Assembly: GCF_003334815.1 (NCBI RefSeq)
Contig: NZ_QOWO01000003.1
Strand: one strand, 5' to 3'
DNA: 64,000 nt
From: Escherichia coli
GTDB lineage: Bacteria > Pseudomonadota > Gammaproteobacteria > Enterobacterales > Enterobacteriaceae
Part shown: positions 39,508 through 40,248 of the stretch, one piece after another
Layout of the letters: each line of letters starts with the position of its first letter
Position numbering within the stretch: the stretch's first letter is position 1
Position numbers and translations under genes: made by a program
Notes under the pieces: model-generated
The model's input: the letters and a program-made list of their open reading frames with translations, nothing else
Databases searched by the model: none
What the model was told of the DNA's origin: nothing

Positions 39508-40248
39508 ATGTTAGATCAAGTATGCCAGCTTGCACGGAATGCAGGCGATGCCATTATGCAGGTCTACGACGGGACGAAACCGATGGACGTCGTCAGCAAA
39601 GCGGACAATTCTCCGGTAACGGCAGCGGATATTGCCGCTCACACCGTTATCATGGACGGTTTACGTACGCTGACACCGGATATTCCGGTCCTTTCTGAAG
39701 AAGATCCTCCCGGTTGGGAAGTCCGTCAGCACTGGCAGCGTTACTGGCTGGTAGACCCGCTGGATGGTACTAAAGAGTTTATTAAACTTAATGGCGAATT
39801 CACCGTTAACATTGCGCTCATTGACCATGGCAAACCGATTTTAGGTGTGGTGTATGCGCCGGTAATGAACATAATGTACAGCGCGGCAGAAGGCAAGGCC
39901 TGGAAAGAAGAGTGCGGTGTGCGCAAGCAGATTCAGGTCCGCGATGCGCGCCCGCCGCTGGTGGTTATCAGCCGTTCCCATGCAGATGCGGAGCTGAAAG
40001 AGTATCTGCAACAGCTTGGCGAACATCAGACCACGTCCATCGGCTCTTCGCTGAAATTCTGCCTGGTGGCGGAAGGGCAGGCGCAGCTGTACCCGCGCTT
40101 CGGACCAACGAATATTTGGGATACCGCCGCTGGTCATGCTGTGGCTGCAGCTGCCGGAGCGCACGTTCATGACTGGCAGGGTAAACCGCTGGATTACACT
40201 CCGCGCGAGTCGTTCCTGAATCCGGGATTCAGAGTGTCTATTTATTAA
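39508..40248 (+). CDS. cysQ: 3'(2'),5'-bisphosphate nucleotidase
   Basis: 246 aa, inositol monophosphatase fold (WLVDPLDGT). Confidence 0.92.

Follow-up and report, generated by a model that had tools for sequence, protein, structure and literature searches.

Bacterial tail-to-tail gene pairs can share a short 3' overlap that holds both stop codons and stays stable over long evolutionary time, and the convergent genes cysQ and ytfJ of Escherichia coli resemble them in this respect; set against such pairs they show nothing unusual, their overlap shifting in steps of 11, 7 and 4 bp between genera. Pangenome studies have described hotspots at which accessory genes are gained between core genes, and the cysQ/ytfJ core junction is similar to these in carrying different small cassettes in different lineages, whereas its occupancy is low (6 of 80 species representatives) and its cassettes consist of one or two genes without mobility genes. 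A further resemblance is to bidirectional intrinsic terminators, as a GC-rich stem-loop is placed where the two convergent transcription units meet, but this stem-loop is located inside the coding sequence of ytfJ and has no U-tract on either strand. Besides these general systems, the same locus and the same polymorphism were described by Higashi et al. (2016, PLoS Genet, PMC4720273), where ytfI is given as an example of a strain-specific inserted segment that is found in K-12 and absent from SE11 and SE15 (S10 Fig of that paper). The sections of that paper dealing with ytfI treat it as horizontally acquired, H-NS-bound DNA and report from ChAP-seq that H-NS binding spreads from ytfI to cpdB, cysQ, ytfJ and ytfK only when ytfI is present. 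The polymorphism of ytfI between cysQ and ytfJ is thus already known, and the state of SE11 and SE15 is the one found in the strain studied here. To the three strains compared in those sections, the present analysis adds the frequency of the filled state (30%), polarity from outgroups, the age and single origin of the insertion, and the rebuilding of the stop codons.

The stretch of DNA analysed here, referred to as the window, comprises 64,000 nucleotides of contig NZ_QOWO01000003.1 of the E. coli assembly GCF_003334815.1. On the + strand, cysQ encodes a 3'(2'),5'-bisphosphate nucleotidase in a 246-aa ORF (39508..40248) with the stop codon TAA at 40246-40248, and on the - strand ytfJ encodes a YtfJ family protein (Pfam PF09695) in a 185-aa ORF (40238..40795) whose stop codon TAG is read as CTA on the + strand at 40238-40240. 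The two ORFs share the 11 bp CTATTTATTAA (40238..40248) with both stop codons inside it, which bears out the convergent overlap proposed in the preliminary description, and this tail-to-tail overlap is the empty form of a site where K-12 carries a 1.2-kb ytfI cassette. The junction sequence is GTGTCTATTTATTAATTAATTTATGCAGCAGG, and the end of cysQ on the + strand is GTG TCT ATT TAT TAA. Both the ORF list and the sequence leave zero ORFs and zero spacer between the two genes, and tblastn of YtfI against 8 kb of the window (36001-44000) found no ytfI-like sequence near the junction. CysQ of the window shares 99% amino acid identity with that of K-12, and the 185-aa YtfJ has the C-terminal tail ...LLHKLINK*. 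A 701-bp query placed over the junction matched many RefSeq E. coli chromosomes at 100% identity, with cysQ and ytfJ annotated across the junction.

A sequence difference was also observed directly beyond the cysQ stop (window 40249-40256), where the E. coli empty alleles and L005 have AATTAAT, while the other Escherichia compared (L003, L004 and L007) and the ytfI-bearing alleles have GAGCAAC or AAGCAAT. It amounts to four clustered substitutions across three adjacent ytfJ codons, of which one is changed from L to I and two are synonymous, and these substitutions produce a run of 18 consecutive A/T bases at the junction (40240-40257).

The preliminary description placed ytfI between cysQ and ytfJ in K-12, and this was correct. 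RefSeq annotates there, in K-12 BW25113, a gene of 939 bp for the 312-aa 'protein YtfI', and the cysQ-ytfJ interval of an O157:H7 strain contains it as well. In the K-12 locus (L001) ytfI occupies positions 1987-2925, between the end of cysQ at 1775 and the end of ytfJ at 2988. In K-12 and O157:H7 a distance of 1,212 bp separates the two stop codons, which overlap directly in the window. Aligned to K-12, the window shows a break between 40248 and 40253, and outside three indel sites the two are colinear. The K-12 insert has a GC content of 29-38% against about 48-58% in cysQ and ytfJ, and the ends of both neighbouring genes are partly built from it: cysQ of K-12 ends in TAC TAA, and ytfJ ends in CTC AAA TAA, giving a YtfJ of 184 aa with the tail ...LLQKLLK*, one residue shorter than that of the window.

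We determined the frequency of the two states in 5,426 complete E. coli genomes, 5,421 of which match the junction query. The junction is uninterrupted in 3,796 of the 5,426, and the remaining matching genomes match as two separate halves; the K-12 cassette was detected in 1,623 genomes (at least 80% of it in 1,605) and adjoins ytfJ among the matches listed. As the two counts add up to 5,419, the site has essentially two states, empty in about 70% of the genomes and filled in about 30%, with the window in the majority state, and the suggestion that it marks a strain-variable site is confirmed. Two other forms were observed. In ETEC1738 (L085 4001-5294), IS1 adjoins a deletion that cut the ytfI cassette to its first 164 bp and also took the 3' end of ytfJ, and with it the C-terminal part of YtfJ, the gene being annotated as a pseudogene; and the record SCPM-O-B-7615, labelled 'E. 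coli', has a pentapeptide-repeat gene at the site instead of ytfI.

The polarity of this difference was determined from the ytfJ loci of 80 Enterobacteriaceae species representatives, in each of which cysQ, ytfJ and ytfI were located. The two genes are convergent with overlapping stop codons in 74 of the 80, by 11 bp in 40 (a count that includes L027, whose value is unreliable owing to an ambiguous base in cysQ), by 7 bp in 28 and by 4 bp in 6. The group with 11 bp includes E. whittamii and other Escherichia lineages, Citrobacter, Salmonella arizonae, Klebsiella and Raoultella, and overlapping stops were found in Enterobacter too. YtfJ tails of the outgroups (...LLHKLLNK* or SK*) resemble the HKLINK of the window and not the K-12 type, and the junction DNA of the window is colinear with that of Citrobacter, Klebsiella and Salmonella, which have no ytfI. 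The prevalence of overlapping stops, the outgroup-type YtfJ tail and the colinear junction together identify the overlap as ancestral and ytfI as an insertion, and the window therefore carries the ancestral Enterobacteriaceae arrangement and not a deletion product. The preliminary description had stated that this strain lacks ytfI, which stands as a statement of absence and fails as one of loss by deletion, since the window has the ancestral majority state and K-12 the derived minority state. We consider it very probable that the locus as a whole represents an ancestral overlap that received a single ytfI insertion, with both states segregating; the data establish the arrangement, its distribution and polarity and the single origin of the cassette, and the routes of insertion, spread and termination given below are proposals.

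It is possible that a filled ancestor of this strain was converted back to the empty allele by homologous recombination. An unlikely explanation is that a deletion removed ytfI from the strain or from its recent ancestors, the overlap being the deletion scar. The gene is old in Escherichia, truncated forms of YtfI are common, and deletions at the site do occur, but the one in ETEC1738 looks different from the window in having IS1 and a truncated ytfJ. The window, in contrast, has the 11-bp overlap, a 185-aa YtfJ and a near-identical tail as in the ytfI-free Citrobacter, Klebsiella and Salmonella, and its junction contains no cassette-derived or rearranged sequence, the tail and length of YtfJ being of the outgroup type. 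A simple deletion could not restore this ancestral sequence, because in the filled allele the end of YtfJ is altered (184 aa, QKLLK*) and the stops come from the cassette.

Having taken the overlap as ancestral, we looked at the origin and age of the cassette that interrupts it. Within the K-12 cassette a strong hairpin directly follows cysQ (-21.4 kcal/mol, z = -5.3), and a hairpin plus U-run follows ytfI (-17 kcal/mol, z = -4.8). All filled alleles (K-12, O157, L006, L087 and L090), including that of L006, one Escherichia lineage with ytfI at the junction, agree in the hairpin that follows cysQ and in the QKLLK* tail of YtfJ. As the hairpin, the tail and the place are common even to divergent alleles, they trace back to one insertion event. 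The dS of ytfI against K-12 in three lineages is 0.13, 0.37 and 0.70 and roughly tracks that of the flanks in the same lineages (0.02-0.07, 0.07-0.20 and 0.59-0.66), which dates the insertion to before E. coli split from one or more other Escherichia lineages. An insertion older than that split needs either an empty state that persisted for long or its repeated re-import by recombination. The dN/dS is 0.27-0.41 for ytfI against 0.01-0.11 for the flanks, and ytfI thus evolves under relaxed purifying selection.

Neither terminal inverted repeats nor a target duplication were found at the ytfI cassette, and no integrase, transposase or mobility gene is present in or beside it, ytfI being its sole gene. 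A possible degenerate duplicate of the overlap, TCTATTTAC against CCATTATTT, was considered as a target duplication and set aside, as it is too short and AT-rich to call. From this lack of transposon ends, target duplication and integrase we infer that the single insertion of the 1.2-kb AT-rich cassette with its one orphan gene, ytfI, which took place in an early Escherichia lineage and exactly in the overlap, came about by illegitimate recombination. With the cassette, cysQ gained a new TAA stop together with a terminator hairpin, ytfI came with its own terminator, and ytfJ received a new end, ...K-TAA. The empty and the filled state have segregated in E. coli since then, with ytfI probably spread and lost through exchange by homologous recombination in the conserved flanks.

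Homologues of YtfI formed 17 clusters in a search of 5.8 billion proteins, all of them from Escherichia or Shigella wherever the source was named. The near-full-length forms are 98, 95, 89, 78 and 69% identical to K-12 YtfI, and many other forms are truncated. By this search ytfI appears to be an orphan restricted to Escherichia and Shigella. No Pfam family was found for YtfI even at E <= 10, nor any NCBIfam family. A role in anti-phage defence was considered with PADLOC and rejected, as the sole match covers 41 residues of a Cas6b model (E = 8e-4, 17 bits) and is too short and weak; the one match among PHROGs, to a family of unknown function, was likewise too weak (E = 0.0017). The AlphaFold2 model of YtfI, built from an 11-sequence alignment, had a mean pLDDT of 46.7 and a pTM of 0.37 and was too poor for a fold search.

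With no room between the genes in the empty state, either transcript has to terminate within antisense sequence of the opposite gene. A stem-loop, UGCAGCAGG-UCCAUCA-CUUGCUGCA (as DNA, TGCAGCAGG-TCCATCA-CTTGCTGCA; 40257..40281, + strand), starts 9 nt past the cysQ stop and lies within ytfJ codons 172-180. ViennaRNA pairs it over 10 bp, with G-U pairs among them, and a 55-nt segment containing it folds at -15.5 kcal/mol (z = -2.4), the MFE structure having a second small stem as well. In the RNAalifold consensus, the only structure supported is an 8-bp stem, which all 74 sequences analysed form without a broken pair. One of its pairs varies (GC in 68, GU in 3 and AU in 3 of the 74), and within Escherichia this pair was observed to follow a compensatory path from G-C through G-U to A-U (CAG/CTG to CAA/TTG). 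When 81 ytfJ sequences were aligned by codon, a codon identity of 95% or more was confined, among the Val, Gln and Leu columns, to the stem codons V172 (GTG), Q173 (CAG) and L179 (CTG). Ordinary Leu columns of ytfJ average 63%, and the 95% level is reached by 3 of the 5 stem codons against 6 of 114 others (Fisher p = 0.003). The synonymous sites of the stem are almost invariant across these 74-81 sequences of Enterobacteriaceae.

How the transcripts might end was examined from the same stretch. A U-tract directly 3' of the hairpin is absent on both strands, which read ACCUCUUCCUG on + and AUAAAUUAAUUAA on -, and a scan of the junction for intrinsic terminators gave nothing convincing (4 sites against 2.0 expected). 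A canonical bidirectional intrinsic terminator was hence rejected: the GC-rich hairpin is present, but the U-tract is missing and the element is not reported by the scan. A palindrome detected by pattern scan, CTGAATCCGGGATTCAG (40216..40232, + strand), lies within cysQ codons 237-242, at a distance of 5 nt past the ytfJ stop as read on the - strand. As a terminator for ytfJ it was rejected too, being not significant against shuffles (z = -1.0) and missing from the consensus fold; its structure is not conserved outside Escherichia, and other genera have a different short stem in those codons. The + strand at 40225-40449 is C-rich and G-poor (GC skew -0.25 to -0.31), which would suit the loading of Rho on read-through RNA that is not translated, the hairpin serving as a stable 3' end. 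Rho would then terminate cysQ transcripts in the C-rich antisense of ytfJ, and these transcripts would end at, or be trimmed back to, the stem-loop at 40257-40281. The stem-loop is a putative 3'-end element of the cysQ transcript, and the conservation of the stem could also reflect something other than termination.

The junction is interrupted in 6 of the 80 species representatives, and apart from ytfI it was found to hold several other cassettes. In E. albertii, the cassette (L008 4792-5949) encodes a 385-aa pentapeptide-repeat protein at 33% GC, which has weak, sub-threshold similarity to the T3SS effectors PipB/PipB2, and the cassette of SCPM-O-B-7615 (L086 2602-3759) encodes a pentapeptide-repeat protein as well. 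In C. youngae ATCC 29220 the cassette (L044 4676-6631) encodes a TIGR04222 membrane protein and a radical SAM/SPASM enzyme, and a 42-bp stretch of the ytfJ 3' end, stem-loop included, stands on both sides of it as a direct repeat (95% identical). Two species of Kluyvera carry a cassette (L061 4556-5431) with an S11 D-Ala-D-Ala carboxypeptidase homologue, and a spacer of 71 bp in K. intermedia resembles the ends of this insert and looks related to them. The junction may be a minor hotspot, or simply a tolerated position.

The presence of four unrelated cassettes at one junction in four lineages, the stem-loop within the 42-bp repeat of C. youngae and the frozen stem codons would fit a dedicated integration site, with a recombinase recognising the conserved stem-loop, rather than neutral tolerance of insertions. 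We regard such a site as improbable, as no integrase, transposase or terminal inverted repeats are present in or beside any cassette, a flanking duplication is lacking at the ytfI, E. albertii and Kluyvera cassettes, the breakpoints differ among cassettes and so few species are occupied; moreover, gaps between convergent genes generally tolerate insertions. An artefact of ORF calling, or an error of sequencing or assembly, can be practically dismissed as the source of the overlap, for although the ORFs were called by a purely mechanical procedure, in a junction of low complexity and high AT content, 3,796 complete genomes have the same junction with RefSeq annotating both genes across it, and 74 of 80 other species preserve the reading frames and their ends. 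Returning to the ancestral overlap with its inserted cassettes, we tentatively suggest, with considerable doubt, that the stem-loop is a selected RNA or DNA element defining the 3' end of cysQ, whose position might make the junction a recurrent entry point for cassettes. If true, this would explain both the frozen synonymous sites and the duplication of the stem-loop by the C. youngae cassette.

The window differs from K-12 at two sites besides this one. A 9.4-kb block at 21011-30449 corresponds in position to no more than yjfZ and a 5'-truncated TetR/AcrR pseudogene in K-12; the genes of the block are annotated in RefSeq as TRAP transporter subunits, an acyl-CoA:acetate/3-ketoacid CoA transferase, an FAD-dependent oxidoreductase, a sugar-phosphate isomerase/epimerase and a 3-ketoacyl-ACP reductase. 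To judge by its position, the ORF at 30181-30852 appears to be the intact form of the TetR/AcrR regulator, the K-12 pseudogene aligning to window 30451-30852. Of the 5,426 E. coli genomes, 1,448 have 80% or more of the block. The third strain-variable site of the window lies between ytfP and ppa (49915-50042), where the chpS-chpB toxin-antitoxin pair of K-12 is absent and 128 bp replace 634 bp. The aligned blocks of the window are 97.9-98.7% identical to K-12 BW25113, so the strain is not a close relative of K-12 in this region, and the pieces of the window that were queried (701 bp and 9.5 kb) are about 100% identical to 720632, CP131_Sichuan, MIN11 (O89m:H9), 98233 and others.

The junction is one of many small accessory-gene sites that differ among E. 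coli strains and in itself matters little. It does show, with K-12 in the derived state at cysQ/ytfJ, that "missing relative to K-12" is not equal to "lost". The gene ytfI provides a tidy case of a long-lived presence/absence polymorphism, being old, apparently restricted to Escherichia, bound by H-NS and still evolving as a protein-coding gene, and the frozen stem-loop of ytfJ offers a small, testable case of how transcripts may end in convergent genes that have no spacer between them.
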